24,000 bases of DNA from assembly GCA_020831965.1 (NCBI GenBank), contig JAFIFP010000013.1, positions 9,431-33,430 on the forward strand, in the 5' to 3' direction. The position numbers and the translations under genes are program-made. The DNA is from Idiomarina sp. Its GTDB lineage: Bacteria > Pseudomonadota > Gammaproteobacteria > Enterobacterales > Alteromonadaceae. The notes under the pieces are model-generated. The model made no database searches, was not told where the DNA came from, and saw nothing but the letters and a program-made list of their open reading frames with translations. Of this stretch, positions 713 through 19,304 are shown piece by piece. The number at the start of each line of letters is the position of its first letter. Positions within the stretch are counted from its first letter, which is position 1.

Positions 713-751
713 TTCACCACCGACCGGGCACCTGACACAACGCGCCCACGT

Positions 752-2248: not shown

Positions 2249-2259
2249 TGGAGAACGTC

Positions 2260-3714: not shown

Positions 3715-3738
3715 ATAGTTAAGATTGTTCGTTCTCAT

Positions 3739-3776
3739 GCGTGTGTCTGGTCTCGTGTACAGGCACACGTTTTTTA
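3739..3776 (+). terminator. Rho-independent terminator after the OmpA-family gene
   Basis: Stem GCGTGTGTCTG (3739..3749) pairs with CAGGCACACG (3760..3769), with one G-U/mismatch. It is followed by TTTTTT (3770..3775). The T-run overlaps the stop codon of the convergent Crp-family gene. Confidence 0.6.
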
Positions 3777-4577
3777 TTGCCTGCTTGAACGTCCAGCTTT
3801 GTAGTGGATTAAGCGCTCACACTCGGTTTTGACAACCTCGTAACATTCACAACATCTCGCCTCCAATTTCACCCTATCATTAATTGTCAGCTTCCCTCTG
3901 TGGTACTCGATGATGCCTAGCTTCTGGAGTTTTCCTGCCGCTACAGACACCCCCTCTCTGCGCACTCCCAACATATTGGCGATTAACTCTTGTGTCATCG
4001 TGAGCACATTACTTGGAATACGATCGAGTGAGAGCAACAACCAACGACACAATTGCTGATCGACACTGTGATGGCGATTGCACACGCCAGTTTGAGCCAT
4101 TTGCGTCATTAATGACTGGGTGTAACTTAGAAGTAGCGCACGAAAATGGCTATCGCGGGCAAACTCAGCTTTTAGTATTGAGGCTGGCACACGATAGGCA
4201 CTGCCCGCGCTCTGCACGACGGCACGATGTGCTGTGCTGTCTCCACCCAAAAATAAGGATGTGCCGAGCACTCCGTCATTGCCGATCACTGAGATTTCCG
4301 CTGAATCGCCATTTTCCATGACATAGAGCAGCGAAATAATAGAGTTCGTTGGGAAGTATGCGTGGTGTAACTTGTCGCCCGCTTCGTAAATGGCGCTACC
4401 GAGAGGCAACTCAATTAACTGGAGATGCGGCGTTAAACGCGCCATCAACTCGCCAGAGAGCGCATTGAGTAGGTAGTTCTGCCCACATGTAGTTGGTGGA
4501 AGTTTTCCGCACGTCATTTGTTTAATTGAGTGCATTGCACACCTGTCCCTATGATTATTATGTATCCAACTCATCAT
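3774..4577 (-). CDS. Crp/Fnr-family transcriptional regulator (cNMP-binding-like domain + C-terminal HTH, Cys-rich C-terminal tail)
   Basis: Effector-domain pattern: LIELPLGSAIYEAGDKLHHAYFPTNSIISLLYVMENGDSAEISVIGNDGVLG. HTH: MTQELIANMLGVRREGVSVAAGKLQKLGIIEY. Tail: LEARCCECYEVVKTECERL. The true start is uncertain because there are several in-frame Met codons (MHSIKQ, MTCGK). Confidence 0.8.
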   Translation of the reverse strand: MMSWIHNNHRDRCAMHSIKQMTCGKLPPTTCGQNYLLNALSGELMARLTPHLQLIELPLGSAIYEAGDKLHHAYFPTNSIISLLYVMENGDSAEISVIGNDGVLGTSLFLGGDSTAHRAVVQSAGSAYRVPASILKAEFARDSHFRALLLSYTQSLMTQMAQTGVCNRHHSVDQQLCRWLLLSLDRIPSNVLTMTQELIANMLGVRREGVSVAAGKLQKLGIIEYHRGKLTINDRVKLEARCCECYEVVKTECERLIHYKAGRSSRQ

Positions 4578-4655
4578 AGTAGCGGTTAAACGACGTTTGC
4601 GCGGGATTATCGTGGTAACTCGAAAGTTACCAGGACCATATGCGTCCTTTTTTAA

Positions 4656-6014
4656 CTACTGGAGTGTGTTCTTATACACCACACCATTTTTCATAATAAC
4701 TGAGAAATTATCTGTGGGGTTCGAGATCAGCTGGATGTCTTCTAGAGGATCACCTTTCACGAGTATTAAATCTGCAAGCGCACCTTCTTCAATTACCCCT
4801 AAACGCCCTGGATATGGGTTACGCGGGCCAGCGAGACTAAGCAGTTCAGCATTCGTCGAGGTTGCCATGCGAAGGACTTCTGCGGGTGTAAACCAGCGTG
4901 TCATCTTAGCGAGCATTGCGCCCTGATTGTGTGTATTGGCTGCGTTGAAAAGAATGTCTGTTCCCCACGCGAGTTTTACCCCATGTTCGCGAGCTAACTC
5001 GACCGCGCGATCTGTTCCGCGTGCCACTTGCAGCTGCTTCAAGCGTGACTCCCCGACTTGCGGATTCGAGTGTTCGTCGTCAAGAAATGGCTGCAAACTC
5101 CACCAAACATCATTCTCGGCCATCAGGCGCGCGGTTTCCTCGTCAGCCAACTGACCATGCTCAATACTTCTTACACCCGCCTCAATTGCCATGCGAATGG
5201 CGCGTGGGGTATAGGCATGCACCATCACGTACGTTCCCCAGTTTTCGGCCGCTTCGACCGCGACCCGAAACTCTTCCACGGAATATTGAGACACATCCAG
5301 TGGGTCGTAAATAGAAGATACGCCACCACCAGCCATTAACTTGATTTGTGAGGCACCTAGCATCAACTGCTCACGTGCGCTGCGCCGCACTTCATCAACC
5401 CCATCAGCAATCCGAGTAATACCCGTTTGCTCTAAATGCGATAAAGGTGTTGAGTCGGTGCGCGGAACCTCATGGCGCAGCCGAAAGTCGCCATGACCAC
5501 CCGTTTGTGAAATCGTTGCGCCGGAAGGAAAAATGCGAGGGCCTGGCGTAATTCCCTCGTCGATCGCTAACTTCAATCCAAACACTGGGCCACCCACATC
5601 TCGTACTGTAGTGAATCCCCGTAAAAGCGTCGCTTCGGCTTGCCGAGCAGCAACAATGTGAACGTAGCTTGCATCCACTGTCATTGCTTTCATCATGGGG
5701 ATTGCAGCCATCGTAGCGTGCCAATGAGCATCAATCAGCCCCGGCATCAAGGTGTGCCCCTCGCCGTTAATCAAGGTGCTCTCGGCCCGCACTTGCGCTG
5801 AAGGTCGGCGCGAACTCACTTGCTCAATTGTGTTACCACGAATCACCACATAAGAAGGCCCGGAGAGGGTATCACTCTGTCCATCAAAAATACGGACGTT
5901 CTCAATGATGATAGTTGGGGTTGCTTCCGCCGTGGTGCATGCGCTGATAAAGAGCAGACTAAAGGACAAAATAACGACCCACAGGGTTTTTACGGTGGGG
6001 AAATTCAAGAACAT
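4656..6014 (-). CDS. Secreted/lipoprotein amidohydrolase-family metallohydrolase (COG1228-like)
   Basis: Signal peptide with LLFISAC lipobox. HxH metal motif (GLIDAHWHA). Later conserved HAYT, IEHG and AWGTD segments are typical of the amidohydrolase superfamily. RBS GAGAGGG lies upstream of the ATG at 6014. Confidence 0.8.
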   Translation of the reverse strand: MFLNFPTVKTLWVVILSFSLLFISACTTAEATPTIIIENVRIFDGQSDTLSGPSYVVIRGNTIEQVSSRRPSAQVRAESTLINGEGHTLMPGLIDAHWHATMAAIPMMKAMTVDASYVHIVAARQAEATLLRGFTTVRDVGGPVFGLKLAIDEGITPGPRIFPSGATISQTGGHGDFRLRHEVPRTDSTPLSHLEQTGITRIADGVDEVRRSAREQLMLGASQIKLMAGGGVSSIYDPLDVSQYSVEEFRVAVEAAENWGTYVMVHAYTPRAIRMAIEAGVRSIEHGQLADEETARLMAENDVWWSLQPFLDDEHSNPQVGESRLKQLQVARGTDRAVELAREHGVKLAWGTDILFNAANTHNQGAMLAKMTRWFTPAEVLRMATSTNAELLSLAGPRNPYPGRLGVIEEGALADLILVKGDPLEDIQLISNPTDNFSVIMKNGVVYKNTLQ

Positions 6015-6210
6015 CGGCTACCCTCTCACTTTCATTCGGTTATTTGTGATGCCAAAACGCCTAGCACCCGTAAACAGCGTAGGCAAAGTCTGTGCGTTCG
6101 GCGAGAAATTTACGCTTGGGAGCGCTTCAGCTTTTTGCGAGCAAACCAACCTGATTGTTTTTACGTAACAATGAGTTAATAAGTTCTAAAAAAGGAAGCA
6201 ATGCACAGCG

Positions 6211-7047
6211 ATGGTGATTGAGGACACTCTCCAAGCCAGTGAGCGATTGGTACAAACTCTGCGCCAGCATGGGCCCATGACCGTCTTAACTGGCGCCGGC
6301 ATCAGTACCGATTCGGGTATTCCAGCCTACCGTGATGACACGGGTGCTTGGAAAAGTAGTCCACCAATGCAACACCAAGAGTTTATGCGCAGCGCCGCTG
6401 CGCGACAGCGCTATTGGGCAAGAAGCCTCCATGGCTGGCCACGGCTCTTCTACGCGAAGCCCAACATCGCGCACCAAACCCTCGCGAATTGGCAGCACCA
6501 AGGCCTAATTGGCACCATCATTACACAGAACGTCGATGGCTTGCATCAGCGTGCCGGTAGCGGAAATGTCATCGACCTGCATGGTGATGCCAACATGATG
6601 GTCTGCATGCAGTGCGGAGATAAAACGCCGCGGTTAGAAATGCATCAACGATGTTTAGCACTAAATCCTAACTACAGCGACCATACTCCACCACCAAATT
6701 CGGATACCCGACCCGATGGCGATGCTGCACTTGAGGGCGACTTCAGCGACTTCGAAGTACCTGCCTGCACCCGTTGCGGAGGCATTTTAAAGCCGGACGT
6801 CGTGTACTTCGGCGACAACGTACCGCGCGAGCGCGTTGAATCGGCGCAAGCAGCGCTTCGCAATAGTGACGGTTTAATAGTGATTGGCTCGTCACTCATT
6901 GTGTTCTCTGGCTATCGCTTTGCCCGCCAAGCACATCAAGCAGGACAACCCCTCATTCTACTTAATCTTGGTACCACCCGCGCCGATGATCTTGCCACGC
7001 TGCGATTACGCACACCTATTGCACAAACCTTGGGGTATGGCTTTTGA
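6211..7047 (+). CDS. NAD-dependent protein deacylase, Sir2 family (class II / SIRT4-like)
   Basis: GAGISTDSGIPAYRD, TQNVDGLHQRAGS, catalytic-His segment VIDLHG, Zn ribbon CMQCG...CTRCGG, KPDVVYFGDNVP, GSSLIVFSGYRF. Confidence 0.85.
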   Translation: MVIEDTLQASERLVQTLRQHGPMTVLTGAGISTDSGIPAYRDDTGAWKSSPPMQHQEFMRSAAARQRYWARSLHGWPRLFYAKPNIAHQTLANWQHQGLIGTIITQNVDGLHQRAGSGNVIDLHGDANMMVCMQCGDKTPRLEMHQRCLALNPNYSDHTPPPNSDTRPDGDAALEGDFSDFEVPACTRCGGILKPDVVYFGDNVPRERVESAQAALRNSDGLIVIGSSLIVFSGYRFARQAHQAGQPLILLNLGTTRADDLATLRLRTPIAQTLGYGF

Positions 7048-7050
7048 GTG

Positions 7051-7752
7051 CTAGATCAAAGTTACCCAATCCGGTAAGTACTGAATCGCTATAGTTTCAA
7101 GTACCTTGTCAAAACCAGTAAATATCATGGCTGCGATGAGCAATAACGCATAGCCCAGAATAAGTCGAGCAAGCTTCGCCGGTGCCCCCAGATCGCGTAT
7201 ACGCTTACCTGCAGCATAGCCAATACCAATGAGCGGTAACGCCGTGCCGACGCCGAACCCTAGCATCACTAAGAATGCCATTCCTAGGTTGCTTCCGGTT
7301 GAGGCTAACGCGATTGCCGCACCGAGTGTCGGCCCCACGCAAGGAAGCCAAACCAACCCCAAAGAACCGCCAATAACAAACTGAAAAGCTGGGTGCGACG
7401 AATCTCGTTCTACATTCCCGCTATTAGGTAGGAAGCTCAAACCTCGCGATAGCAAAATGGACATATATTGGTTGAGCCATGCATTGACTAAGGCCAACCC
7501 CATGAAAAGCATAAGGCCCGCAGCGAAGTAACGAAGGGCGTCTGGAGATAGTCCAGCATTCATGAACAAATAGGTGAGTATCGATCCACCCAATGCAAAA
7601 GTAAGTGCCAAGCCTCCCGCAAGGAACCATAACCCAGCCTTCGAGGCTCGCATAGCGGACGCAGTTACTGCCGGTACCATGGGCAAAACACAGGGTGATA
7701 GCAGGCTTAAAACGCCCGCTATCATCGCTAATGGAATGGCTGTCCATTCCAT
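7051..7752 (-). CDS. ccdA: Cytochrome c biogenesis protein CcdA / DsbD-family thiol:disulfide transmembrane electron transporter
   Basis: Six-TM profile with the two conserved Cys motifs LSPCVLPMVP and WLPCVGPTLG. The start lies 2 nt after the stop of the upstream thioredoxin gene (operon). Confidence 0.8.
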   Translation of the reverse strand: MEWTAIPLAMIAGVLSLLSPCVLPMVPAVTASAMRASKAGLWFLAGGLALTFALGGSILTYLFMNAGLSPDALRYFAAGLMLFMGLALVNAWLNQYMSILLSRGLSFLPNSGNVERDSSHPAFQFVIGGSLGLVWLPCVGPTLGAAIALASTGSNLGMAFLVMLGFGVGTALPLIGIGYAAGKRIRDLGAPAKLARLILGYALLLIAAMIFTGFDKVLETIAIQYLPDWVTLI

Positions 7753-7754
7753 GG

Positions 7755-8186
7755 TTATTCAGCGCCTATGTCATGTTTTGACAACTCGGAATTGATAACC
7801 CGCTGTCGAGTTTGGGCGACAGCAAACCAAAGCTGCTCTTCACCGCGATAAAGTGCGAACGTAGACTGACGCGGTGCGTTAAAGTAACTCACCCACTCTT
7901 TTTGAGAGTCGAAGTCTACTTCGAACACGACAATCTCACTGTCAGGATTGTTCTCAAAATAGCTGTTCAGTGCCCGTTGCTGTCTGGCGCACGTAGAGCA
8001 CCAAGTCGCATAAACGTCGACCAAGATTAACTTGTTCTCTTGTTGAGCGTTTCGAAATGCTGATTCAGTGAAAGGTTGTTTGAATTCCGCGAGATGTGTC
8101 GTCGACGCATTCACCGAGCTGATGTAGAGGAAAGTTCCAACGACGGCTAAGCTCGTCGCGGTAAGAATTGCGATAAGGTATTTCAT
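7755..8186 (-). CDS. Membrane-anchored/periplasmic thioredoxin-family protein (WCSTC active site)
   Basis: N-terminal signal/anchor MKYLIAILTATSLAVVGTFLYI. Thioredoxin-fold motif LVDVYATWCSTCARQ. GGAGG lies about 6 nt upstream of the ATG at 8186; the ORF-track start at 8198 lacks an RBS. Confidence 0.75.
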   Translation of the reverse strand: MKYLIAILTATSLAVVGTFLYISSVNASTTHLAEFKQPFTESAFRNAQQENKLILVDVYATWCSTCARQQRALNSYFENNPDSEIVVFEVDFDSQKEWVSYFNAPRQSTFALYRGEEQLWFAVAQTRQRVINSELSKHDIGAE

Positions 8187-8282
8187 AAAGACCTCCAAGG
8201 TAAGTTGACCTTGTCAGTCTATGGGAGCCGACCTAACTACACATTAACCAAAACACTTGTCTAGTGTACCGAAACAACGGCA

Positions 8283-9215
8283 TCAGGCATGGCGGTTACG
8301 ATATTCTCCTGGTGCACACGCTTCACGTTGTTTAAAAAAACGAATGAAAGCTGTGGCGGATTGGTATCCCAATGCCTCGGCGATTTGATCAAGAGTTTGT
8401 TGACTGTGAATAAGTAACTGCCGCGCTCGCTGCATCCTCAAAGTATCAACGATGGCTTTGGGGGACATAGACAATAACTTCTGACATCGATCAGCAAATG
8501 CACTGCGAGACAGATAAGCCAATGCTGCCATGCTATCCACCGACCAGTCCGCAGCGAGATCCGTCATCACAGCCACTAGTACTTTCCTCAACACGTCATC
8601 TCTCAGGGCCGCCAACAGACCACTCGTAATAGTTTCATCTGACAGAACTTGCCGAAGTAAGTGCAACACAATCACGTCACTCAACCGACTCACAGCAACC
8701 TGATAGCCCGGTCGCTGAGTGGCCGCTTCATCACGAACGATGGCGATGAGCTGGCTCAACTGTGTTGATTGTCGACTCGCCGGCAAGTGAATCACATCGG
8801 GCATGAGCTGAAACAAGGTTTCGGTGAGTGCGGAACCCACGTCAATGTCATAGCACACCAACCCGCGTTCTAGATGCGCTGGTATGCACAATGCGTCGAA
8901 GTCGTTTTGTGTTGTAGTCTCTGTGATGGGCTGATCACTCAACCAATGACGCAAGCCATGACTAAGAAACAAAGCATCACCCGCTACCATTTGAAACTGC
9001 TGCTCCAGTTGACCTGGCACAGCAACCCAAAGCTGCCCTTGCGTCACAACATGCAGGGCTGCCTTATTGGATTTCTCGGTAAGCAAGTTCCAATCTTCGC
9101 AAAATCCCGACTCAAAGTGCAATCGTGAACCAAAGGCCAGTTGTTCGAGTAACCTATCAACTCCCTCAGTCGTTTTAGTTGATTGCGCCGTCGTTTTGGT
9201 CATTGTGGTAATCAA
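8283..9215 (-). CDS. AraC-family transcriptional regulator (cupin-type N-domain + C-terminal double HTH)
   Basis: The C-terminal LSRSAFADRCQKLLSMSPKAIVDTLRMQRARQLL..SQQTLDQIAEALGYQSATAFIRFFKQ is a classic AraC HTH. The gene is divergent from the 9286 operon. The start could be 9215 or 9203. Confidence 0.85.
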   Translation of the reverse strand: MITTMTKTTAQSTKTTEGVDRLLEQLAFGSRLHFESGFCEDWNLLTEKSNKAALHVVTQGQLWVAVPGQLEQQFQMVAGDALFLSHGLRHWLSDQPITETTTQNDFDALCIPAHLERGLVCYDIDVGSALTETLFQLMPDVIHLPASRQSTQLSQLIAIVRDEAATQRPGYQVAVSRLSDVIVLHLLRQVLSDETITSGLLAALRDDVLRKVLVAVMTDLAADWSVDSMAALAYLSRSAFADRCQKLLSMSPKAIVDTLRMQRARQLLIHSQQTLDQIAEALGYQSATAFIRFFKQREACAPGEYRNRHA

Positions 9216-9285: not shown

Positions 9286-9822
9286 ATGCCCGAGGATCTT
9301 TCCAGCAACAGTTTTACTGCACTAATCTCCGGGAATGTGGACCAGCTCGACCGTCTTCAAAATCTGATTAAAAACCTATCCAATGCCCAATACTCAAAGC
9401 CTTCGCGCCTGCCTCATCAGCCAAGCGTAGGACGACATGTCCGACATGTGATTGAGCACTATTTGCAGCTCTTGTTAAGCCTAACATCGGGCGTTCTCGA
9501 TTACAGTTTAAGGTCTCGAGATGTGCAATTTGAAGAATCCCTAGCAATGGCCATCGAGCAAATTTCAGAGATCCAAGAAAAACTCACTTCACTCTCTATC
9601 CCCTCTACAGGGTCTGCGGTCCAAAATCAGAACATTATTTTTCAGGCAAATAACCAGAAATTCTCGACAAATCTTGCGAGAGAGCTCGATTTCTTGAACA
9701 GTCATACGGTTCATCATTTGGCCTTGATACAAATTATTACGCAGGAATTTGGTATTCCAGCGGATCGCAGAACAGGCATTCACCCCACAACACTAGAGCA
9801 CCTCGACGCATGTGCACGATAA
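9286..9822 (+). CDS. DinB/YfiT-like superfamily protein (putative metal-dependent, possibly thiol-transferase-like)
   Basis: Four-helix-bundle-type pattern with a His triad: SVGRHVRHVIEHY and NSHTVHHLALI. RBS AAAGGAAAAG lies before the ATG. The assignment rests on motif recall only. Confidence 0.5.
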   Translation: MPEDLSSNSFTALISGNVDQLDRLQNLIKNLSNAQYSKPSRLPHQPSVGRHVRHVIEHYLQLLLSLTSGVLDYSLRSRDVQFEESLAMAIEQISEIQEKLTSLSIPSTGSAVQNQNIIFQANNQKFSTNLARELDFLNSHTVHHLALIQIITQEFGIPADRRTGIHPTTLEHLDACAR

Positions 9823-11414
9823 GCTGGTGCTTCGAGCACGAGCGTATGCACATTCTCGTGAATCGTGATGAGCAACGCGATCGTGATCATGCGCTCCCGC
9901 CCACACGCGTAACCAACAATACTGTCCAAGCAATGATGCCCATTGATCCTGAGGGTGGCGGGAGTTGGGTTGCCGCAAATGACCATGGGTTTGTGTTTTG
10001 CATTCTTAATCGCTATTCGCGCCTCGCATCAGTGGAACAGTCATGGCAAAGCCGGGGCGAACTGGTTCGTCAACTTTCTCAATGTGAGAACTGGAGCGCA
10101 GTACATGAGCTATTGCAACCTGGGAAGCTCGCACTCTATCGCCCATTCTCGCTGCTCGTATTTCATGGCAACAATGAACCCGAGCAATTTTCTTGGAGTA
10201 CCACTGTACTGACACAAACAGTAGCGCCTCGTTCTCCGGTCTCAAGCTCCAAAGTGTTGCCGCGATTCGTGCCTTGGATGAGAAAACGATGGGCCCAACT
10301 CACGTTACCGAAGCACCCGCAGCTTAGCGACCTAGAGAAGTATCACTTGGCGAGTCAACCCATTTGCGCGCACTTTGGCGTCAACATGAGTCGGCCAACG
10401 AGCCAAACCGTGAGTATCACCCGTGTTGAACTGACGACCTCGCAAGTAACCATGAGCTATTGGGCGGGTAACTTAACGGCTCTTAATACGGCGCAGAGTG
10501 AGTCAACTACATTGCAGCTGCGCGTTCCCCTGCATCTCTCCTCTTCTCATGTGAGTCGCATCAACTTAAAAACGTTAATGGCACAATATAATCCGAGTCT
10601 TGCTAAGGCTCTTCGTGGATGGCAATGGCGGTTGTTAACTTGGTTAGTTGATGAACCGGGGTTGAACCACCGGCTAACACAATTAGACAAATTACCAGTA
10701 GACACATTTTTCAGCCGTGCACTCAGTCAACTGCGAATAACCCCTGAGGTCCATGCCTTTCGCTGGCCAACCACGACCGCCCGACCAGTATTTCTTTGTA
10801 ATCATCCCACGGGCGGTATTGATGGTGTAATGACCCTCGCAATTCTCCTTAAGCGCTTCCCGAACCTCAAAGTCATTGCTAATGATGCACTCGCGACCAT
10901 CGAGCCCTTGGCCTCTAGAATCATTCCGATCAATGTGTTCGGCGACTCCCGTCAGTCCATACACAGGCTGATGAGCGCATTTTCTAGCGATGACCCGTTA
11001 TTGATTTTCCCCGCAGGAAAAACGGCACGATTTACTATAAAAGGGCAACTTGATGACGGCGATTGGCCTAAAAGTCTGGCAGCACTCATCCGGCGCTCTC
11101 AACGTCCTGTAGTTCCGCTGTTTATTCAGTCACGTAACTCGATACTGTTTTATTTGCTGCATGCACTTCGCCGCATGCTTCGCGTGTCGACTAATCTCGA
11201 AATGCTTCTCTTACCGAGAGAGACATTGAAGCCAGTGATTCGATCGCCGCAACTTTTTGTCGACTTGCCAATAAGTCCAACTGAAGTGGAAGCCTGTGCG
11301 GTAAATGATGAAAAACGCATCAACTGGTTACGCACTCGTTCATACTCGCTACCTAGCCAATTTGCCGAGGCCAATAATGACAAGTCCAGTTCCTCTTGCT
11401 CAAGCCGAAAATAG
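9810..11414 (+). CDS. Fusion protein: N-terminal NRDE (TANGO2/DUF833, Cys-Ntn-hydrolase-like) domain + C-terminal lysophospholipid/OlsA-type acyltransferase domain
   Basis: The protein starts with Met-Cys (MCTISW). The NRDE motif ILVNRDEQRDR is at nt 9861..9872, followed by IDPEGGGSWVAANDHGFVFCILN. C-terminal half: FLCNHPTGGIDG (His codon 10803, Asp codon 10821) and LLIFPAGKTAR acyltransferase blocks. The ATG overlaps the upstream gene by 13 nt (ATGTGCACGATAA). Confidence 0.7.
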   Translation: MCTISWCFEHERMHILVNRDEQRDRDHALPPTRVTNNTVQAMMPIDPEGGGSWVAANDHGFVFCILNRYSRLASVEQSWQSRGELVRQLSQCENWSAVHELLQPGKLALYRPFSLLVFHGNNEPEQFSWSTTVLTQTVAPRSPVSSSKVLPRFVPWMRKRWAQLTLPKHPQLSDLEKYHLASQPICAHFGVNMSRPTSQTVSITRVELTTSQVTMSYWAGNLTALNTAQSESTTLQLRVPLHLSSSHVSRINLKTLMAQYNPSLAKALRGWQWRLLTWLVDEPGLNHRLTQLDKLPVDTFFSRALSQLRITPEVHAFRWPTTTARPVFLCNHPTGGIDGVMTLAILLKRFPNLKVIANDALATIEPLASRIIPINVFGDSRQSIHRLMSAFSSDDPLLIFPAGKTARFTIKGQLDDGDWPKSLAALIRRSQRPVVPLFIQSRNSILFYLLHALRRMLRVSTNLEMLLLPRETLKPVIRSPQLFVDLPISPTEVEACAVNDEKRINWLRTRSYSLPSQFAEANNDKSSSSCSSRK

Positions 11415-12267
11415 AGACCAACTGCGTCACGAGTTGACCCAGTTAACGCCACTTTCGCATGTCCGTGGATTGCAAGTTTTTACTTTTAAAGCGGAGGAAG
11501 CACCGACAGTAATGAGAGAGGTCGGTCGTATTCGAGAGCTGATTTTTCGAGACGCCGGCGCAGGAAGGAACCTTGAGCGAGATCTCGATCCACTTGATTT
11601 TGGCCCCAACTGTTATCAACAGCTCTTAGTATGGGACCCAAAGCGGTCCGAAGTGGTTGCTCTGTATCGATTCAAATTGGGGGTTGAGGCAATTCAAGAT
11701 CTGCCATCCCTAAGAACTACGCAGCTATTCAATTACACCGAAGAATTCAAGGCGAATATTCTTCCCTTTGCCATAGAGCTTGGCCGTTCGGTCGTGAATC
11801 ATGAGGCTAAAGCAGCACGTTTCGGCTTCTTTGCGTTGTGGGTTGGACTCGAAGCGCTATTACACAAATACCCTCACGTCGAATTCTTTTTTGGCAATGT
11901 GTCACTCTACAAAACTCTGGGGCAAGCTCCGTTAAATCTGTTAGTGAGCTTTTGTCAGCTGCACTATCGACCACCCACACGTTTTCTTGCAGCGAAGCCA
12001 GAGCTCATTCTACACGCTGAGTGGCCAAATAATCAGAACTACCTCAATGCCAATGCTCGAGAACGAATTCAAGCACTACAAGGTCACTTAGACCACTACC
12101 ACATCAAAATTCCCAAAATACTGCAATCCTACTTGTCCTTAAGTACGGACATCTGGTTCGACGACGCAGCCCGCGACGCGGACTTTGGCGAAGCTTATGA
12201 GCTCAGTATTATTGTGCCCGTTAAGGCCATAGCGAAAGACCGCAGACTCAAGTTGGCGGGGGATTAA
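11377..12267 (+). CDS. OlsB/GlsB-like GNAT-fold N-acyltransferase (N-acyl amino acid / lyso-aminolipid synthase family, so-called hemolysin-like)
   Basis: Family blocks: IRELIFRDAGAG...DLDPLDF..CYQQLLVWD...VVALYRF and ELGRSVVNHE...FALWVGLEALL....FFFGNVSL. GAGG lies 6 nt before the ATG at 11377 (alternative ATG at 11305). The gene overlaps the upstream gene end at 11414. Confidence 0.7.
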   Translation: MTSPVPLAQAENRDQLRHELTQLTPLSHVRGLQVFTFKAEEAPTVMREVGRIRELIFRDAGAGRNLERDLDPLDFGPNCYQQLLVWDPKRSEVVALYRFKLGVEAIQDLPSLRTTQLFNYTEEFKANILPFAIELGRSVVNHEAKAARFGFFALWVGLEALLHKYPHVEFFFGNVSLYKTLGQAPLNLLVSFCQLHYRPPTRFLAAKPELILHAEWPNNQNYLNANARERIQALQGHLDHYHIKIPKILQSYLSLSTDIWFDDAARDADFGEAYELSIIVPVKAIAKDRRLKLAGD

Positions 12268-12414
12268 CTTCTGTTTTAAAAGCTTAAAGGCTGATTAAGA
12301 GGATATCGAGGCCGAAAGTTTCCGAGAAGATTTGTCTTATTGTGGTCAACTTTAGGTTGCGCTGCGTAGTGGATGGACAGATTAACTTTATGCTCTTACC
12401 CAAGGAACTACCAA

Positions 12415-12804
12415 ATGACGCATTTACTGACGACTTTGTTCATTGTGATGCTCTTGCCAATACTGGCTAAAGCACCGTTGGTAATGATGTTGATTAAGCA
12501 AAAGGGGGGCTATGACAATAACAACCCTAGGGCGCAGCAGCGCAATCTGAAAGGATTTGGTGAGCGCGCCACTGCAGCTCATTACAATAGTTTTGAAGCA
12601 CTGATCATGTTTGCTTCAGCGGTACTTATCACGGGCTTGTCAGGCGACATTGACCAAGGCAGCATCGCGTTGGCATACACTTTTGTTATTGCACGCGTGG
12701 CCTATCTGTTCTGTTATTGGTACGACAAAGCCACACTGCGCTCTTGGGTCTGGTTAGTGGGTGTCATTGCTCTCTTTGTCATGGCGGCTCGAGCCATTTG
12801 GTAA
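12415..12804 (+). CDS. MAPEG-family membrane protein (glutathione-transferase-like superfamily)
   Basis: About 130 aa with 3-4 TM segments. Characteristic segment: GYDNNNPRAQQRNLKGFGERATAAHYNSFEALIMFA. AAGGA lies 8 nt before the ATG at 12415; the ORF-track start at 12373 adds a non-hydrophobic extension. Confidence 0.7.
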   Translation: MTHLLTTLFIVMLLPILAKAPLVMMLIKQKGGYDNNNPRAQQRNLKGFGERATAAHYNSFEALIMFASAVLITGLSGDIDQGSIALAYTFVIARVAYLFCYWYDKATLRSWVWLVGVIALFVMAARAIW

Positions 12805-12820
12805 TGGCTGTTTTGCTGCG

Positions 12821-13765
12821 CTAGCCGTACCAATAGGACAACTGCTGCGCCGCAAACGGAATGTACAAAATCACGTTGAGCGGGAAGGTAATACCGAGCG
12901 CCGCAAGCATGGCTTTACTAATATCCGCACTCGGAATTGCTGCTCGTATGGCCGCCGGCGCCGCGATATATGATGCACTTGCGGTAAGTCCGCCCAAAAT
13001 CAAAATACTTCCCGTCGGCAATCCCAAATAGAAGCCCAACAGCAGACCGGGCCAGATCAACACCAAGGGCGCTAAGGCCGCAAACAAGATCAACCGCCAA
13101 TGCGCCATGGGTAATGGACGGCAAATGCGGGCGGTTGTTAAACCCATTTCAAGCAGAAACAATGCGAGTAGCGCGGTAAAGCCGTCAATGACTAAACTCT
13201 TCATTGCGCCCAAGCCTTCCGGCCCGTAGAGCCAGCCAATCACTACGCCACCCATCAACAGAATGACGCCTCGACTAGTGAAGGCCTCGTGCCAGATGGC
13301 GGACATCTTCGCGCCCTCACCTGTGTCACCATTTTTCCAGTGATAAAAAGCCAGCATGAGAATAATCGCTGGGAGTTCCAGTAACACCAGATAGAGTGTC
13401 GCATCCGCGGAAATAGTTAACCGATAGCTTTCGGCAAAGGCCCACGCCACAGCAAAAGTACCGGCGCTCACCGAACCATAATGGGCCGCAATACTAATGG
13501 CATCGGAAGAAGGTAACCGCACAATACGCCGAAGAATCGGCAAAATGGCCACGGGAATAATCAGCCCCAGTGACATAATGGCGAGTAAATGGCTCCAAAC
13601 AATAGATTGTGCGTCTCCGTGCAGGGCTAAACCGCCCTTAATCCCGATACTGAGCATCAAAAGGATTGTCAGGATTTCATAAATCTGGCCCGGAACTTTC
13701 AAGTCAGACTTCACAATTCCTGCAACGACACCTAGCACAAAGAAGGCAATCACGATGTCCGGCAT
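12821..13765 (-). CDS. Sodium-dependent bicarbonate transporter family (SbtA-like/DUF897) permease
   Basis: The polytopic membrane protein starts IAFFVLGVVAGIVKSDLKVPGQIYEILTILLMLSIGIKGGLAL, the conserved N-terminal block of this family. Confidence 0.65.
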   Translation of the reverse strand: MPDIVIAFFVLGVVAGIVKSDLKVPGQIYEILTILLMLSIGIKGGLALHGDAQSIVWSHLLAIMSLGLIIPVAILPILRRIVRLPSSDAISIAAHYGSVSAGTFAVAWAFAESYRLTISADATLYLVLLELPAIILMLAFYHWKNGDTGEGAKMSAIWHEAFTSRGVILLMGGVVIGWLYGPEGLGAMKSLVIDGFTALLALFLLEMGLTTARICRPLPMAHWRLILFAALAPLVLIWPGLLLGFYLGLPTGSILILGGLTASASYIAAPAAIRAAIPSADISKAMLAALGITFPLNVILYIPFAAQQLSYWYG

Positions 13766-13942
13766 GGCAATTCTCGCTTATTTAAAATGAGCTGGTCGAC
13801 GGTCGCGCAAATATATCACAGTCATTTACTCGCTCGCAGAGATATCAGCTCGTACCACAACAGTCGCGATACTTGATCTAACGCACTCCAAAAGCCTCAA
13901 TCGCCGACTACACTAAGACTCGGTATAGTGAGGGAGAGTGTT

Positions 13943-16597
13943 ATGCGCAGCAATAGTTTTCATGATCGAGAAGGCGAAGCAATTGGCGCTGCACTTGAGA
14001 CCGACCTAACTCATGGGCTAACACAAGCCCAAGTGCATGCACGACTATCTGAATACGGTGAGAACAAGTTACCCGAACGCCGCCCTGAACCCACTTGGCA
14101 GCGTCTCTTCCGTCAATTTCATAACTTGTTGATTTATGTTTTGCTGGTCGCAGCTAGCCTTGCGGGAATACTCCAAGAGTTTATCGACATGGGGGTTATT
14201 CTCGCCGTAGTTGTCGTTAATGTAATCATCGGGTTTGTCCAAGAAGGCCGAGCCGAAAAAGCGTTACGCGCCATTCAAGGGCTCCTCTCAAGCCAGGCCA
14301 CTGTCGTTCGAGATAGGCGTCGCCAACGCATTAACTCCACTCATTTGGTTCCCGGCGATTTAGTTATTCTAGAAGCTGGAGACCGTGTCCCAGCAGACTT
14401 ACGCCTTATCAAGGTTCGTAACCTAGCACTGCAAGAATCGGCATTAACAGGTGAGTCAATGCCGGTGGAAAAACAAACCGGAAGCCTCGCTGCTGATACG
14501 CCTTTAGCTGCACGCTCCAATTTGGCGTTTTCCGGCACACTCGTAACCCAAGGACAAGGTATTGGCATCGCTTACGGGACTGCTGAATCGACCGAGCTCG
14601 GCCGAATTAACCAGATGTTGACGCAGGTGAGTGAGCTGACTACACCACTTCTGCAACAGATGGCAAGATTTGCACGAATACTCACGTTTATAATTCTCTC
14701 CCTCGCCACCTTGGTGTTTGTCCTGGGCTGGTGGCGAGGCTACGAGTTGATGTACTTATTTATGGCGGTCGTCAGCCTAGTTGTCGCCGCAATTCCAGAG
14801 GGACTTCCGACCATCCTGACCGTTGCTTTGGCGATTGGTGTGATTCGAATGGCCAAGCGCCGAGCCATTATTCGCCGCTTACCTGCGGTTGAAACCTTAG
14901 GCGCGGTATCCGTGATTTGCTCTGACAAGACAGGCACCCTGACGCGTAACGAAATGACCGTCACTACCATTGCCACGCCCAGTGGCGAAAGCACAGTAAC
15001 GGGCGTAGGATACGCTCCCTCTGGCACCATTAGCGAGTCTCCTGAGCAAGATCAAGAAACCCTCACTTGGCTATTTCGCACCGCCGCACTCTGTAACGAC
15101 GCTTCGCTAACAAAAAAAGGTGAGCATTGGCAAGTCGATGGCGACCCCATGGAAGGCGCTCTTCTAAGTGTCGCCATGAAAGCAAAAACCCAGTTAGAAG
15201 CCCTCAGTGCAAGTTGGCCACGCGTCGATGTTATACCATTCGACTCTCGGTATAAGTTCATGGCGACCCTGCATCAAACGCCAGCAGGCAATTGGGTCGC
15301 TTTAATTAAAGGTGCTCCAGAGGCAGTTCTTGGTTTATGTGACGACTCGTCAGATTGGTCCACTCGAATCGCTAGTATTGCTGAGAGAGGTGAGCGCGTG
15401 CTCGGCTTCGGATATGCAGAATTCAGCGAGCGCCCCAACCAATTGCAGACGGAACATCTTCGCGGTAAATCCACATTTCTTGGCTTGATGGGGTTTATTG
15501 ATCCACCGCGCGAAGAAGCCAAAGAAGCCATACGAGCCTGCAAATCTGCTGGAGTGCGAGTGGTCATGATTACCGGTGACCACCAGATTACCGCACAGGC
15601 TATTGGTCGCGATTTAGGATTAACGACAGAACATGGCGTACTTACTGGCTCAGAGCTCGATCAACTTGACGATACAGAACTAGATTTGCGCTTAGAACGC
15701 GTCAGTATTTTCGCACGTACCACCCCCGAGCAAAAACTGCGCTTAGTGACTTTGTTGCAAGCGAAGGGGGCGGTTGTCGCTATGACGGGAGACGGTGTCA
15801 ATGACGCGCCAGCTCTTAAAAGAGCAGATATCGGGATTGCCATGGGATTGAAGGGCACCGACGCGGCTCGCGAGTCCAGTGAAATGGTACTCACTGACGA
15901 TAACTTTGCCACCATAGTGAACGCAGTTCGTGAAGGCCGTACCGTTTACGACAACCTAAAGAAAGCAATCGCGTTCTTATTACCCGTCAATGGAGGTGAA
16001 TCTTTAGCCATCATACTCGCGCTACTCTTGGCACTGACTCTCCCTATTCTGCCTCTGCAGATTCTCTGGGTAAATATGGTCAGCTCCATCGCGCTTGCAC
16101 TCGCCTTAGCATTCGAAGTTGCCGAGAAGGATGTCATGAATCGTCCCCCTCGCACTCCCCGCGAGCCATTACTTTCAGGATTTCTGCTCTGGCGTGTCAT
16201 TTTGGTTTCCATCCTATTTACTATCGGTATCTTTGGTGTCTTCGAATGGGCTCTTGCGCAGGGTGCTGATGACGCCTATGCGCGTACTATGGCCGTTAAT
16301 ACGCTCGTAGCGATGGAAGTGTGGTACCTCTTCAGCGTGCGTTACCTTCGCCGAGGTTCATTCTTTAAGGAGGGATTAAAAGGCAATGGACCTGTCTTGT
16401 TAGCAGTCAGCCTTGTGTTCCTGTTACAACTGGCTTTTACTTACGCGCCGCCACTGCAGCAGCTTTTCAGTACAGCAAGCCTAAGCTTGGCTCATGGCTT
16501 TATTTGCGTGAGCATTGGCGTCGGGGTGTTCGTGATACTTGAGGTTGAGAAAGCGCTATTTGGGCGACTCCGAACTCGACCTCAGTCGCCTGGCTGA
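13943..16597 (+). CDS. Cation-transporting P-type ATPase (P2-like)
   Basis: N-terminal cation-ATPase domain (GLTQAQVHARLSEYGENKLPE). Motifs TGES (ALTGESMPVEK), PEGLP (AAIPEGLPTILT), phosphorylation site CSDKTGTLTRNEM, hinge TGDGVNDAPALKRADIGIAMG. GGGAGAG RBS lies before the ATG at 13943. The transported ion cannot be read from the sequence. Confidence 0.9.
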   Translation: MRSNSFHDREGEAIGAALETDLTHGLTQAQVHARLSEYGENKLPERRPEPTWQRLFRQFHNLLIYVLLVAASLAGILQEFIDMGVILAVVVVNVIIGFVQEGRAEKALRAIQGLLSSQATVVRDRRRQRINSTHLVPGDLVILEAGDRVPADLRLIKVRNLALQESALTGESMPVEKQTGSLAADTPLAARSNLAFSGTLVTQGQGIGIAYGTAESTELGRINQMLTQVSELTTPLLQQMARFARILTFIILSLATLVFVLGWWRGYELMYLFMAVVSLVVAAIPEGLPTILTVALAIGVIRMAKRRAIIRRLPAVETLGAVSVICSDKTGTLTRNEMTVTTIATPSGESTVTGVGYAPSGTISESPEQDQETLTWLFRTAALCNDASLTKKGEHWQVDGDPMEGALLSVAMKAKTQLEALSASWPRVDVIPFDSRYKFMATLHQTPAGNWVALIKGAPEAVLGLCDDSSDWSTRIASIAERGERVLGFGYAEFSERPNQLQTEHLRGKSTFLGLMGFIDPPREEAKEAIRACKSAGVRVVMITGDHQITAQAIGRDLGLTTEHGVLTGSELDQLDDTELDLRLERVSIFARTTPEQKLRLVTLLQAKGAVVAMTGDGVNDAPALKRADIGIAMGLKGTDAARESSEMVLTDDNFATIVNAVREGRTVYDNLKKAIAFLLPVNGGESLAIILALLLALTLPILPLQILWVNMVSSIALALALAFEVAEKDVMNRPPRTPREPLLSGFLLWRVILVSILFTIGIFGVFEWALAQGADDAYARTMAVNTLVAMEVWYLFSVRYLRRGSFFKEGLKGNGPVLLAVSLVFLLQLAFTYAPPLQQLFSTASLSLAHGFICVSIGVGVFVILEVEKALFGRLRTRPQSPG

Positions 16598-17145
16598 TAA
16601 CGACGCATAGAACGAAGTTCCATTGCATAGGCGGCAGTACCCAGCTCGTTTTCTTCAATATCGATACGCAGCACGCCAGTAATCCAGTACGGATAGTACA
16701 TATCGTTCACTGAAATGTTCGTGCCACGAGGTACTTCATGAATATAGATAAGCTGGTAAGGCGGCGGTGGTGGCACATGAATGCAGGCACCGTAGTAGGG
16801 CACAAAGAAAAAGCTGCGCACGTTTTGGCGGTCATCATAATCAAGCGGCACAATATACCCCGGTAAGCGCACTAACTTACCTTCATAGTCACTTACGGTG
16901 TCCGTTGAATTCAAAATCGCATTCCACTGCGCGGCTGCGGGATGGTCCCACTCGTCGGTAAAAGGGTCTGGGGCTGATTCAGAGTAGTCATGTTCTAACT
17001 GCGGGAGTGCGTCGAGCTGCGTCATAATGTGGTCGGGAATCAAATCGATCCAATCAATGGTACGGGGCAACTGTCCCGCGACCGCAGTTGTGCTGACTGA
17101 GCAAACCATCAGCCAGAAAGCTAGCGCTCGACCTAGGTACTTCAT
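16582..17145 (-). CDS. DUF3299-family secreted protein
   Basis: Signal peptide MKYLGRALAFWLMVCSVSTTAVAG. Hallmark block: VRLPGYIVPLDYDD..VRSFFFVPYYGACIHVPPPPPYQLIYI. GGAGAA RBS. The 3' end overlaps the ATPase 3' end by 16 nt. Confidence 0.7.
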   Translation of the reverse strand: MKYLGRALAFWLMVCSVSTTAVAGQLPRTIDWIDLIPDHIMTQLDALPQLEHDYSESAPDPFTDEWDHPAAAQWNAILNSTDTVSDYEGKLVRLPGYIVPLDYDDRQNVRSFFFVPYYGACIHVPPPPPYQLIYIHEVPRGTNISVNDMYYPYWITGVLRIDIEENELGTAAYAMELRSMRRYQPGD

Positions 17146-17190
17146 CGCAATTTCTCCACAGCAGGATAGAACTTTTTGAGCGTGAGTGTT

Positions 17191-17202
17191 ATGTTATAAC
17201 AT
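17191..17202. promoter_or_regulatory. Zur-box-like perfect palindrome ATGTTATAACAT in the DUF3299/DUF1826 divergent intergenic region
   Basis: 12-bp perfect palindrome identical to the core at 67..78. It lies 16 nt upstream of the DUF1826 ATG and 45 nt upstream of the DUF3299 ATG. Confidence 0.5.
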
Positions 17203-17218
17203 TATTAGGAGGCGCACC

Positions 17219-17881
17219 ATGAAATCCTCGTCACACATCGCATCGCAACACAGTCCGTACGTTCGCTTTGAGCGTGATGACCATGTTGCTGCAGGCATAG
17301 ACCACTTAGTGTTGCCGGAAGTTCTCAACGAACATATTAACTTAGCGATTTGGCAACGCGCGCTCCCTCATGAAGTGACGACATACGCACAATTCCTGCA
17401 GCGTACTCAATGGCCACAACAAAGGTTTTTGACCACAGCGCAAAATGTTGCTGACATTCTTTCGGACGCATTACCGAGTGACAGCGCGTCAGCAGCGACC
17501 AGAACTGCGTTTATTCGCGACGTTGCCTTGCTTGCCGAAATGTATAGCTGCCTGTTCGATGTGCAAGACGTTGGCATTCGGCTCGCGCGATTAAGTACGG
17601 CGATGTGTCCTAAATTTCATACGGACAAGTTGGGTTGTCGCTTGATCACCACATATGCTGGCTTAGGCACCGAATGGTTAGCCAACGACGTGATTCAACG
17701 CACTACCAGCGGTAAAGTTATGACTTCCGTAGATGCGCCAGTTCAACACCTGAACGCTGGAGACGTCGCGTTGTTTAAAGGCGACGGTTGGGCGGATGCG
17801 GCTTTCGGGGGAATAGTGCATCGTTCTCCAGCGGTACCAGAAAGCGATGCGCGCGTGGTACTCACCATAGATGGATTCTAA
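17219..17881 (+). CDS. DUF1826-family protein
   Basis: Block MCPKFHTDKLGCRLITTYAGLGTEWL matches my recollection of the DUF1826 signature. AGGAGG at 17207..17212 lies 6 nt before the ATG at 17219. Confidence 0.6.
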   Translation: MKSSSHIASQHSPYVRFERDDHVAAGIDHLVLPEVLNEHINLAIWQRALPHEVTTYAQFLQRTQWPQQRFLTTAQNVADILSDALPSDSASAATRTAFIRDVALLAEMYSCLFDVQDVGIRLARLSTAMCPKFHTDKLGCRLITTYAGLGTEWLANDVIQRTTSGKVMTSVDAPVQHLNAGDVALFKGDGWADAAFGGIVHRSPAVPESDARVVLTIDGF

Positions 17882-17898
17882 AGGGCGGTGTTCTGGCG

Positions 17899-18339: not shown

Positions 18340-18392
18340 GAGGCCTCCATGGTCTCTTTATTCGTATTTTTATTTTCTAACTACTTAAATGC

Positions 18393-18821: not shown

Positions 18822-18849
18822 GGTAATTCCTCACATTAAGTGGGCTCAG

Positions 18850-19161: not shown

Positions 19162-19304
19162 GAATTCATGACTTCTTGGTATTTGCTCTTCAAGCTAATG
19201 CTTGTCTTTATATCACTATTCGCTATATCAAATAGAAATTGGATCGTTCTCGCCCTTCACCATAGCTCATATACTGCTGACTGGTCATAACTAGAGCGCA
19301 ATCG

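Follow-up and report, generated by a model that had tools for sequence, protein, structure and literature searches.

A fusion of a TANGO2-family domain to a predicted lyso-aminolipid O-acyltransferase in a candidate lipid operon of Idiomarina

We analysed a 24,000-nt stretch of DNA from Idiomarina sp. (GenBank assembly GCA_020831965.1, contig JAFIFP010000013.1, positions 9,431 to 33,430 of the forward strand; hereafter the window), which contains a gene that joins an NRDE/TANGO2-family domain to a lipid acyltransferase. This gene overlaps a DinB/YfiT-like gene on one side and an N-acyltransferase gene on the other, and we interpret the three as a candidate unit for lipid synthesis. The fused open reading frame (ORF) runs from 9810 to 11414 on the forward strand, with 534 codons followed by a stop codon (11412..11414). 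The first-pass annotation of this DNA had described a single uninterrupted ORF of this length joining the two domains, and both points are borne out: no stop codon or frameshift occurs in the frame 9810..11414, and each half is matched by a Pfam family. The NRDE/TANGO2-family domain, predicted to adopt the fold of cysteine N-terminal nucleophile (Cys-Ntn) enzymes, comprises residues 1-236 (9810..10517), with Cys2 encoded at 9813..9815 and the NRDE motif at 9861..9872. It is followed by an interdomain linker (residues 237-252; 10518..10565) that varies in sequence and length, and then by an OlsF-N/GlsA-type lyso-aminolipid O-acyltransferase domain (residues ~253-517) with a short C-terminal tail, which together occupy 10566..11414 and include the motifs NHPTGGIDG (10800..10826) and FPAGKTAR (11007..11030). 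The linker region is gap-rich and unconserved in an alignment of 25 fused homologues, yet it is always in frame. The AlphaFold2 (AF2) model of the full-length fusion has a mean predicted local distance difference test (pLDDT) of 84.6, which dips solely in the linker (~63, residues 241-250) and in the last nine residues, and the N-domain is tethered straight onto the predicted N-terminal helices of the acyltransferase domain. Because the predicted template modelling score of this two-domain model is 0.86, the prediction suggests that the two domains hold a defined relative arrangement.

The N-terminal half starts with the residues M-C-T-I-S-W and carries the motifs LVNRDE (N18-E21), GGGSW (49-53) and ILN (65-67). 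The Pfam TANGO2 family (PF05742) matched residues 1-134 with 41.2 bits (gathering score 22.6; E = 2.7e-10), a match that spans profile positions 1-140 of 257 only, and a precomputed PF05742 match was present for 27 of 27 fused database homologues. Nine residues were invariant in the N-domain alignments (C2, N18, R19, D20, E21, R25, D46, N67 and R82), and the MCT[LVI]SW start and the NRDE motif were invariant in both the fused set and the broad N-domain set. An M-C-[T/S] start, and hence Cys2, was found in 119 of the 119 NRDE domains from all loci, two of them with alternative start codons. When the AF2 model was compared with the PDB using Foldseek, the top matches were structures of human TANGO2 (9BWA and 8SV7; E = 6e-10 to 2e-9), followed by the bacterial NRDE protein CV2077 (3GVZ; TM-score 0.66, root-mean-square deviation 4.4 Å). 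The closest characterised enzyme was acyl-coenzyme A (CoA):isopenicillin N acyltransferase (2X1D; E = 1.6e-8, root-mean-square deviation 3.7 Å), and further matches included penicillin V acylase, many bile-salt hydrolases and acid ceramidase (E = 1e-5 to 1e-7); the matches with a Cys-Ntn fold included 2X1D, 3PVA, 6UFY and 5U7Z (E = 1.6e-8 to 3e-6). The Pfam score above the gathering threshold and the TANGO2 structures at the top of the Foldseek results confirm the earlier assignment of this half to the NRDE family, and the Cys-Ntn matches agree with the fold that had been expected from its N-terminal cysteine. The cysteine is residue 2, immediately behind the initiator methionine, which would place it at the nucleophile position of a mature Cys-Ntn chain. 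No propeptide for autoproteolysis was found, as the ORF begins with Met-Cys, and exposure of Cys2 would depend on methionine aminopeptidase.

A profile of the family showed a weak sequence match to human TANGO2 (8SV7) over residues 11-117 only (E = 0.005-0.009). In this alignment, C2, N18-R19-D20-E21, R25, N67 and R82-G83 correspond to human C2, N25-R26-D27-E28, R32, N75 and R88-G89. The 2026 crystal structure of the human protein presents C2, N25, R26, D27 and N75 as a putative catalytic set and R32 and R88 as part of an anion-binding triad, and several of these residues are sites of pathogenic variants (PMC13044924). S145-S147 and R158 are our guesses for the counterparts of human Asn157 and Lys166; the alignment to 8SV7 ends at about residue 116. 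The function of TANGO2 is disputed, with roles proposed in heme trafficking, in acyl-CoA binding and lipid homeostasis, and as a Cys-Ntn hydrolase (PMC11867700, PMC12782551, PMC13044924). Human TANGO2 binds C16:0- and C18:1-CoA via the NRDE motif, and its loss leads to the accumulation of lysophospholipids (PMC11867700). We found no demonstration of enzymatic activity for any TANGO2 homologue in the literature that we searched.

The NCBI gene model of the identical Idiomarina protein has 522 amino acids and starts at M13, thus leaving out MCTISW and Cys2 (9810..9848). Because 22 of the 25 aligned homologues begin with MCT[LVI]SW, the remaining three being truncated as in the NCBI model, we consider 9810, and not M13, to be the correct start. 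Automated start-codon calling can strip the putative catalytic Cys2 from annotated proteins.

The C-terminal half was matched by Pfam Acyltransf_2 (PF19576) over residues 257-514 with 124.4 bits (gathering score 27; E = 5e-36; profile positions 3-259 of 266), and a weaker match to PF01553 was also present. The NCBIfam model for GlsA aligned to residues 251-513 with 146.3 bits (cutoff 260; profile positions 2-266 of 267), and the N-terminal half of the OlsF model to residues 254-517 with 112.9 bits (cutoff 620). Since both scores are below the equivalog cutoffs, we file the domain as a family relative rather than as a GlsA or OlsF equivalog. The first-pass annotation had proposed a complete lysophospholipid acyltransferase: the acyltransferase is indeed complete, as judged from the coverage of PF19576, but the end-to-end alignment with GlsA and the alignment with the OlsF N-half indicate the lyso-aminolipid type instead. 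By homology, this half is thus predicted to be a complete lyso-aminolipid O-acyltransferase of the OlsF-N/GlsA type, to which no head group is assigned. The motifs NHPTGGxDG (H332...D338, with HX5D spacing) and FPAGKTAR (400-407) are invariant in the 25 homologues, among which N331, H332, P333, T334, G335, G336, D338, G339, P396, G403, T405 and R407 are invariant or nearly so. The pattern [CAS]NHPTGG[ILV]D also occurs in GlsA-like genes of Bacteroidales and Spirochaetes.

The first gene of the unit (9286..9822, forward strand) encodes a 178-aa protein that is predicted from Pfam DinB_2 and from its AF2 model and Foldseek matches to be a DinB/YfiT-like four-helix-bundle metalloprotein. The first reading of this DNA had overlooked this gene, which overlaps the start of the fusion by 13 nt (ATGTGCACGATAA, 9810..9822, forward strand). 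As read directly from the sequence, its stop codon lies inside the Met-Cys-Thr start of the fusion, and the protein ends in ...D-A-C-A-R-stop within the first 13 nt of the fused ORF; the two genes are translationally coupled. The Pfam DinB_2 score is marginal (25.1 bits against a cutoff of 24.8). A search with the single sequence matched only itself, and a profile built from the alignment retrieved 383 clusters, a family whose database label is simply 'DinB family protein'. Across 33 locus-derived and 38 database homologues, R53, H54, Y73, R76, R78, R132, E133, H140, H143 and H144 are invariant, and these residues constitute a predicted DinB-type His triad (H54, H140 and H143/H144) and an arginine cluster. 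The AF2 model (pLDDT 87.2) is a four-helix bundle, for which the best Foldseek match was YfiT of Bacillus subtilis (1RXQ; TM-score 0.65, E = 2.5e-4, 19% identity); other matches were DinB-like proteins, the bacillithiol transferase BstA, a mycothiol S-transferase and a mycothiol-dependent maleylpyruvate isomerase. Characterised DinB/YfiT enzymes activate low-molecular-weight thiols, which is consistent with the titles of the matched PDB entries. The DinB-like partner must figure in any mechanism proposed for this locus.

Downstream of the fusion lies a gene for a GlsB/OlsF-C-type amino-acid N-acyltransferase (PF13444; 11377..12267, forward strand). Its likely start is the ATG at 11377 (alternative start 11305), which has a GAGG sequence 6 nt upstream and results in an overlap of 38 nt with the 3' end of the fusion, compared with ~41 nt in homologues. 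This gene scored 178.6 bits with the NCBIfam GlsB model (cutoff 300) and 158 bits with the C-terminal half of OlsF (cutoff 620). The earlier claim that the fusion is directly upstream of an N-acyl-amino-acid synthase is thus supported by an overlapping PF13444 gene. The C-terminal tail of the fusion (11361..11411) contains a ...SCS(R/S)R... sequence that is conserved among the fusions of the gammaproteobacterial clade. Because the N-acyltransferase gene begins here in a different frame, that gene and its ribosome-binding site, rather than protein function, may account for the conservation.

An identical fused protein is present in the database in an Idiomarina sp. metagenome-assembled genome (MAG), on three contigs. 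Another 26 database proteins (523-539 aa, 31-48% identity) carry both Pfam domains, making 27 in all, and a scan of one genome per species matched both halves in 31 species-representative genomes from three phyla. The architecture is therefore recurrent beyond this assembly, and the junction is kept, with an unbroken frame, in homologues down to ~30% identity. The window comes from a MAG, a kind of source in which such errors do arise, and the single ORF might have been produced by a misassembly or a frameshift joining two genes; the conservation of both the architecture and the junction in these 27 proteins and 31 species genomes rules this out and leaves the artefact a negligible probability. 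Indeed, the carriers include isolate genomes of Alkalimonas, Alishewanella, Arsukibacterium, Salinispirillum and Aliidiomarina. Gammaproteobacterial carriers belong to Alkalimonas, Arsukibacterium, Alishewanella, Rheinheimera, Aliidiomarina, Bacterioplanes, Salinispirillum, Saccharospirillum and Natronospirillum, and the other carriers are Balneolales, Balneolaceae and Cyclonatronaceae, together with one member of the Polyangiaceae. In 24 of the 31 species loci, the fusion is followed directly by the N-acyltransferase gene, and three of the seven loci without it are truncated contigs. The DinB-like gene is directly upstream in 21 of the 31, including all Gammaproteobacteria, the Polyangiaceae genome and one Cyclonatronaceae genome. 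In a crude neighbour-joining tree, most fused forms fall in one region with stand-alone clades nested among them, and a few fused forms are found elsewhere. This intermingling of fused and stand-alone forms suggests more than one event of fusion or fission.

Two divergent fusions were also observed: in P0186 (418 aa), the NRDE domain ends at about residue 165 and the acyltransferase begins directly, and P0044 (605 aa) has long insertions within the N-domain and the linker. Most carriers are haloalkaliphiles or soda-lake organisms (Alkalimonas, Arsukibacterium, Aliidiomarina, Natronospirillum, Cyclonatronaceae and the Balneolales 'CSSed' MAGs; genome loci L007-L037), and the fused gene is also carried by metagenomic contigs labelled SL_3KL and SL_8KL (L089-L092 and L103). 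This alkaline bias could reflect membrane adaptation to high pH or a bias in sampling.

We then extended the analysis to stand-alone NRDE proteins. Of the 5,999 cluster representatives that the N-domain profile retrieved, 1,426 reached E <= 1e-30. Most matches cover the whole domain in stand-alone proteins of 235-265 aa, and only 17-18 of the best 150 are fused. The closest stand-alone relatives are likewise located directly 3' of a DinB-like gene. Using patterns derived from stand-alone members, 80 metagenomic loci were fetched, seven of which proved to be fused, and their annotation relied on hidden Markov models made from the fusion loci and on six-frame searches. The 13-nt overlap between the DinB-like stop and the NRDE start was found in 45 of 78 pairs. 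At least 6 kb of flanking sequence was available for 31 loci (hereafter well-flanked); in 29 of them the DinB-like gene adjoined the NRDE gene, and no other partner of this NRDE subfamily is as constant. A PF13444 N-acyltransferase was present in 16 of these 31 loci, O-acyltransferases of the PF19576 type and of the PF01553 PlsC/OlsA type in eight loci each, and N- and O-acyltransferases together in 15. ATP-grasp ligase-like proteins (10/31), VTT/DedA domains (5/31) and alpha/beta-hydrolases (3/31) were also recurrent neighbours.

The order of these genes varied across loci. The DinB-like gene can be followed by the NRDE-acyltransferase fusion and the N-acyltransferase, by a stand-alone NRDE gene and an OlsF-like gene containing both acyltransferases, or by NRDE, N-acyltransferase, PlsC-type acyltransferase and YHS genes. 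Alternatively, the N-acyltransferase and PlsC-type acyltransferase genes precede the DinB-like/NRDE pair, and on one Marinomonas-like contig the order is VTT, ATP-grasp, OlsF-like, DinB-like and NRDE. The acyltransferases themselves take three forms: PF19576 is joined to NRDE in one protein, both activities lie in an OlsF-like bifunctional protein, or an OlsB-like gene is accompanied by a PF01553 PlsC-like gene. The lipid link is therefore wider than the fusion, since stand-alone DinB-like/NRDE pairs adjoin complete pairs of N- and O-acyltransferases. The guilt-by-association argument of the first-pass annotation, which had connected the NRDE domain to acyl-lipid substrates through its fusion and its neighbour, is strengthened by these stand-alone members; the activity itself is inferred.

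Several other features of these loci were recorded. A YHS-domain protein of ~150 aa is encoded at six of the 31 well-flanked loci (e.g., L102:6522-7010, L132:4760-5197 and L169:1775-2239). The ATP-grasp, VTT/DedA and alpha/beta-hydrolase domains are at times combined in one protein of ~850 aa (examples of this set are L159:4745-7288, L132:1716-3436, L170:2456-4146 and L169:2873-4641). By analogy, this set might represent another, ATP-dependent route to amino-acid lipids comparable to that of planctomycetes, in which OlsH performs an ATP-dependent N-acylation and OlsI is an alpha/beta-hydrolase O-acyltransferase. Apparent 'DinB' ORFs of 420-462 aa (L107, L111, L129 and L158) were rejected as new fusions: they are over-extended ORFs on high-GC contigs with Arg-rich nonsense upstream, and the gap that they cover holds a genuine PlsC-type acyltransferase. 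Clusters for N-acyl-tyrosines (thalassotalic acid and stieleriacine) were found to be unrelated, their partners being ThiF and a nitroreductase.

On the 5' side of the unit, the window contains a divergent gene for an AraC/Cupin_6 regulator (8283..9215, reverse strand; Pfam Cupin_6 and HTH_18), whose best NCBIfam match is RclR, far below the cutoff. A gene with 59-72% identity adjoins the operon in loci of the Idiomarina/Alkalimonas/Alishewanella clade and is absent from the other fusion loci; its product is a candidate regulator of the unit in this clade only. The flank of the operon in this clade has a redox character, with the RclR-like regulator, a thioredoxin-like and a DsbD-like gene (7051..9215 in the window, reverse strand), all three conserved in this clade only. 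Some genomes of the clade also encode HD-domain and CMD/AhpD-like proteins (loci L004, L009-L011, L016, L018, L019, L025 and L032). This setting is a hint that oxidative or chlorine stress may regulate the operon. In Alkalimonas amylolytica and Alishewanella longhuensis, a bufferin-type cluster for a ribosomally synthesized and post-translationally modified peptide (BufA1, MbnB/TglH/ChrH-like, HvfC_N and DoxX; L001:306-2863 and L003:1-1880) lies just 5' of the AraC gene and probably has no bearing on the lipid genes.

On the 3' side, a gene for a MAPEG-family membrane protein resembling membrane glutathione transferases (12373..12804, forward strand; Pfam MAPEG, 87 bits) is followed by a terminator-like hairpin (12792..12809), and an internal promoter-like site was found at 12185..12212. 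The MAPEG gene may be co-transcribed with the unit. All 37 other fusion loci lack it, and it is therefore probably a local addition. Our promoter scan detected no promoter-like site 5' of the DinB-like gene, but it was uninformative, as it yielded a single site in total against 6.7 expected. No heme, ccm or cytochrome genes were found within the window or in the related loci inspected, and no tRNA genes in the window. The regions 275..7047 and 12821..20309 are ordinary chromosomal context. They encode a Big_5/ice-binding-like surface protein (752..2248), an OmpA-family protein (2248..3714), a Crp-like regulator (3774..4577, reverse strand), an amidohydrolase (4656..6014, reverse strand) and a SIR2 deacylase (6211..7047) on one side, and an Sbt_1 transporter (12821..13765, reverse strand), a P-type cation ATPase (13928..16597), DUF3299 and DUF1826 proteins (between 12821 and 20309) and a 2OG-Fe(II) oxygenase (19305..20309) on the other.

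Our results indicate, with a probability of about 0.9, that the DinB-like gene, the NRDE-O-acyltransferase fusion and the N-acyltransferase gene constitute a translationally coupled unit for the synthesis of an acyloxyacyl amino-acid lipid. Enzymes of the GlsB/OlsB type use a 3-hydroxy fatty acid to N-acylate an amino acid, and enzymes of the GlsA/OlsA type then O-acylate the product (PMC12479983, PMC12971839). By analogy with these enzymes, the N-acyltransferase would join a 3-hydroxy fatty acid to an amino acid, and the C-terminal domain of the fusion would then attach a second fatty acid to the 3-hydroxyl through an ester bond. The role of the other two components can be proposed more tentatively, at somewhat less than even odds: the NRDE domain, together with its DinB-like partner, might form an acyl-Cys2 thioester from an acyl-thioester donor and thereby feed or edit the acylation of the lyso-aminolipid. 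In this mechanism, removal of Met1 would bare Cys2 as an N-terminal nucleophile, and the domain would take an acyl-thioester donor, most likely acyl-CoA, into a hydrophobic pocket and form acyl-S-Cys2, as in isopenicillin N acyltransferase. It would thus supply, select or edit the acyl chain for the tethered membrane acyltransferase. The DinB-like protein, with its putative three-His metal site and invariant Arg cluster, would bind and activate the thiol, either CoA or a phosphopantetheine, as it departs from or returns to the thioester exchange. The partnership of DinB-like/NRDE pairs with aminolipid synthases would then be older than the fusion, which has fixed it in one form. A broader version, in which DinB/YfiT-like and NRDE proteins together form a two-protein module for acyl-thioester transfer or editing that ancestrally served lyso-lipid acylation, appears doubtful.

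Several observations weigh against an acyl-thioester role in lipid synthesis. Lysophospholipid acyltransferase activity was not seen for human TANGO2 on its own (PMC11867700). About 40% of the well-flanked loci have no lipid gene within 4 kb, some DinB-like/NRDE loci (Amphritea japonica) carry ATP-grasp ligases without an N- or O-acyltransferase, and a Balneolales subclade has the fusion beside a divergent peptidase U32 gene, with neither a DinB-like nor an N-acyltransferase gene adjoining it. NRDE or DinB-like genes were found near GlsA-like genes in 0 of 48 Bacteroidales and Spirochaetes loci, which indicates that the DinB-like/NRDE module is accessory and not required for the acylation chemistry. 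In addition, the 80 metagenomic loci were ranked by how closely they resemble a single stand-alone protein and do not represent a random sample of the subfamily. Fusion to the O- rather than the N-acyltransferase may merely follow from a gene order in which NRDE precedes a protein with the O-acyltransferase ahead of the N-acyltransferase (L128 and L137). Finally, cleavage of amide bonds is the characteristic activity of Ntn hydrolases, and this speaks for a rival view in which the NRDE domain works as an N-acyl-amide hydrolase or transamidase, akin to bile-salt hydrolase, NAAA or acid ceramidase, with the N-acyl amino acid (the lyso-aminolipid) as its substrate. Such an enzyme might clear or proofread detergent-like or mis-acylated intermediates that lack O-acylation, or exchange the amino-acid head group via acyl-Cys2. 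Penicillin V acylase, bile-salt hydrolases and acid ceramidase, which are characterised relatives of the domain by fold, cleave lipid or steroid amides, a lyso-lipid of the N-acyl-glycine type resembles a glycine conjugate, and the enzymes found with DinB-like/NRDE pairs form amide bonds (PF13444 and ATP-grasp ligases, at 16 and 10 of the 31 loci). Moreover, all Ntn enzymes catalyse amide hydrolysis, and bile-salt hydrolase is also an amine N-acyltransferase (PMC13044924). We nevertheless consider an amidase unlikely, as a hydrolase that destroys the substrate of its own fused domain would be an unusual design and the DinB/YfiT-like partner suggests thiol, not amide, chemistry. Human TANGO2 binds acyl-CoA (PMC11867700), and the sequence alignment did not reach counterparts of its oxyanion Asn157 and its Lys166 in this NRDE subfamily.

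It is also conceivable, if improbable, that the NRDE domain is a non-catalytic binder of lipid or acyl-CoA that presents the donor or the lyso-lipid to the membrane acyltransferase. Acyl-CoA binding is the sole demonstrated biochemical property of TANGO2, and the direct tether to the predicted N-terminal helices of the acyltransferase domain would suit such a role; however, the conservation of Cys2 (119/119), of NRDE and of several polar residues exceeds the needs of a binding pocket, and a tightly coupled metalloprotein partner suggests catalysis. We assign an equally small chance to an independent thiol/redox or electrophile-stress module (or one for HtpA-like heme trafficking) formed by the DinB-like and NRDE proteins and merely co-regulated with the lipid genes. 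The redox flavour of the Idiomarina/Alkalimonas/Alishewanella loci (RclR-like regulator, thioredoxin, DsbD and CMD/AhpD-like proteins) and the well-flanked loci without a lipid gene are in line with such a module, as are the induction of TANGO2 homologues of Caenorhabditis elegans by oxidative stress (PMC12782551) and the heme binding reported for HtpA (PMC10470608). Co-regulation alone hardly explains, however, why a covalent fusion has been kept in three phyla or why, in several gene orders, the pair accompanies three sets of aminolipid enzymes that are not homologous. In addition, the window and related loci are devoid of heme and cytochrome-maturation genes, and a role for TANGO2 in heme biology is itself under dispute (PMC12782551, PMC13044924).

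If the broader reading, with a two-protein acyl-thioester module, is true, the fusion would expose the conserved function of the whole TANGO2 family as a Cys-Ntn acyl-enzyme that hands CoA-activated fatty acids to acyltransferases of the lysophospholipid acyltransferase type, and this would account for the lysophospholipid build-up in human TANGO2 deficiency, a life-threatening childhood disorder. The locus is a variant, not described before, of the aminolipid synthases of the OlsF/GlsAB type, and it is chiefly valuable as a Rosetta stone and an experimental handle on TANGO2 function. The joining of a TANGO2-family domain to a lysolipid acyltransferase in a lipid operon constitutes an independent evolutionary argument for an acyl-lipid role, and the operon offers a simple and tractable bacterial system for testing TANGO2-type proteins. 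It also adds an unreported accessory module (DinB-like and NRDE) to acyloxyacyl aminolipid synthesis, and its soda-lake and alkaliphile distribution may relate to membrane adaptation. Our full-text literature searches found no paper that treats TANGO2, NRDE or DUF833 together with aminolipids, ornithine lipids, OlsF or DinB, and the 2026 aminolipid review does not mention DinB-like/NRDE accessory genes. The fused proteins are already public, labelled merely as 'NRDE family protein' or 'putative acyltransferase', and for Alishewanella, Alkalimonas, Arsukibacterium, Aliidiomarina and Rheinheimera we found almost no polar-lipid data in the open literature.

The components of this locus can be compared with several known systems. 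The DinB-like protein shares with YfiT/BstA and the mycothiol S-transferases a four-helix-bundle fold and a His triad at the expected positions, but it has an additional invariant Arg cluster with a Y-D-x-R-x-R motif and is obligately paired with an NRDE gene. The NRDE domain resembles 2X1D, bile-salt hydrolase, penicillin V acylase, acid ceramidase and NAAA in its fold, in the position of its N-terminal Cys and in the hydrophobic acyl substrates of these enzymes; acyl-CoA:isopenicillin N acyltransferase in particular uses an acyl-CoA donor and an acyl-Cys intermediate. In contrast to these enzymes, with which it shares only ~9-13% identity and in which the Cys is freed by autoproteolysis of a precursor, its Cys would be freed by removal of the initiator Met, as judged from the sequence. 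Human TANGO2 (8SV7 and 9BWA) and CV2077 (3GVZ) share PF05742, a four-layer fold of alpha-beta-beta-alpha type, the Met-Cys start and the NRDE motif with this domain, and the Asn of the (T/L)N motif and the Arg equivalents of human R32 and R88 are conserved. However, the sequence match to human TANGO2 is confined to the N-terminal half (~15% identity), and the bacterial subfamily is shorter (~245 aa when stand-alone), has its own conserved C-terminal half (SPVSSS, TVS and Y217) and possesses a DinB-like partner, here along with a fused acyltransferase. HtpA of Shewanella (SO0126), for which a function in heme trafficking has been proposed, is likewise a bacterial member of the DUF833/TANGO2 family, but it adjoins a metal-transporter gene with no reported lipid or DinB-like context (PMC10470608), whereas our window lacks heme and cytochrome genes.

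For both acyltransferases, GlsA and GlsB of Bacteroides thetaiotaomicron (NF053697 and NF053696; bioRxiv 10.1101/371807) are the best-scoring curated families, aligned over their full length, and the same two-step logic of N-acylation followed by O-acylation applies. The scores in the window are, however, below the equivalog cutoffs (260 and 300), and both the gene order and the fusion differ. OlsF (NF052615) contains PF19576 followed by PF13444, in the same order as here, and the proteins of the window align to OlsF positions 5-268 and 268-565/570. The head group need not be ornithine, as the scores of 113 and 158 bits are far below the OlsF cutoff of 620. Unlike in OlsF, the O- and N-acyltransferases are split over two overlapping genes (stop codon at 11412..11414), and the O-acyltransferase bears an extra 250-residue N-terminal NRDE/TANGO2 domain and is preceded by a DinB-like gene.

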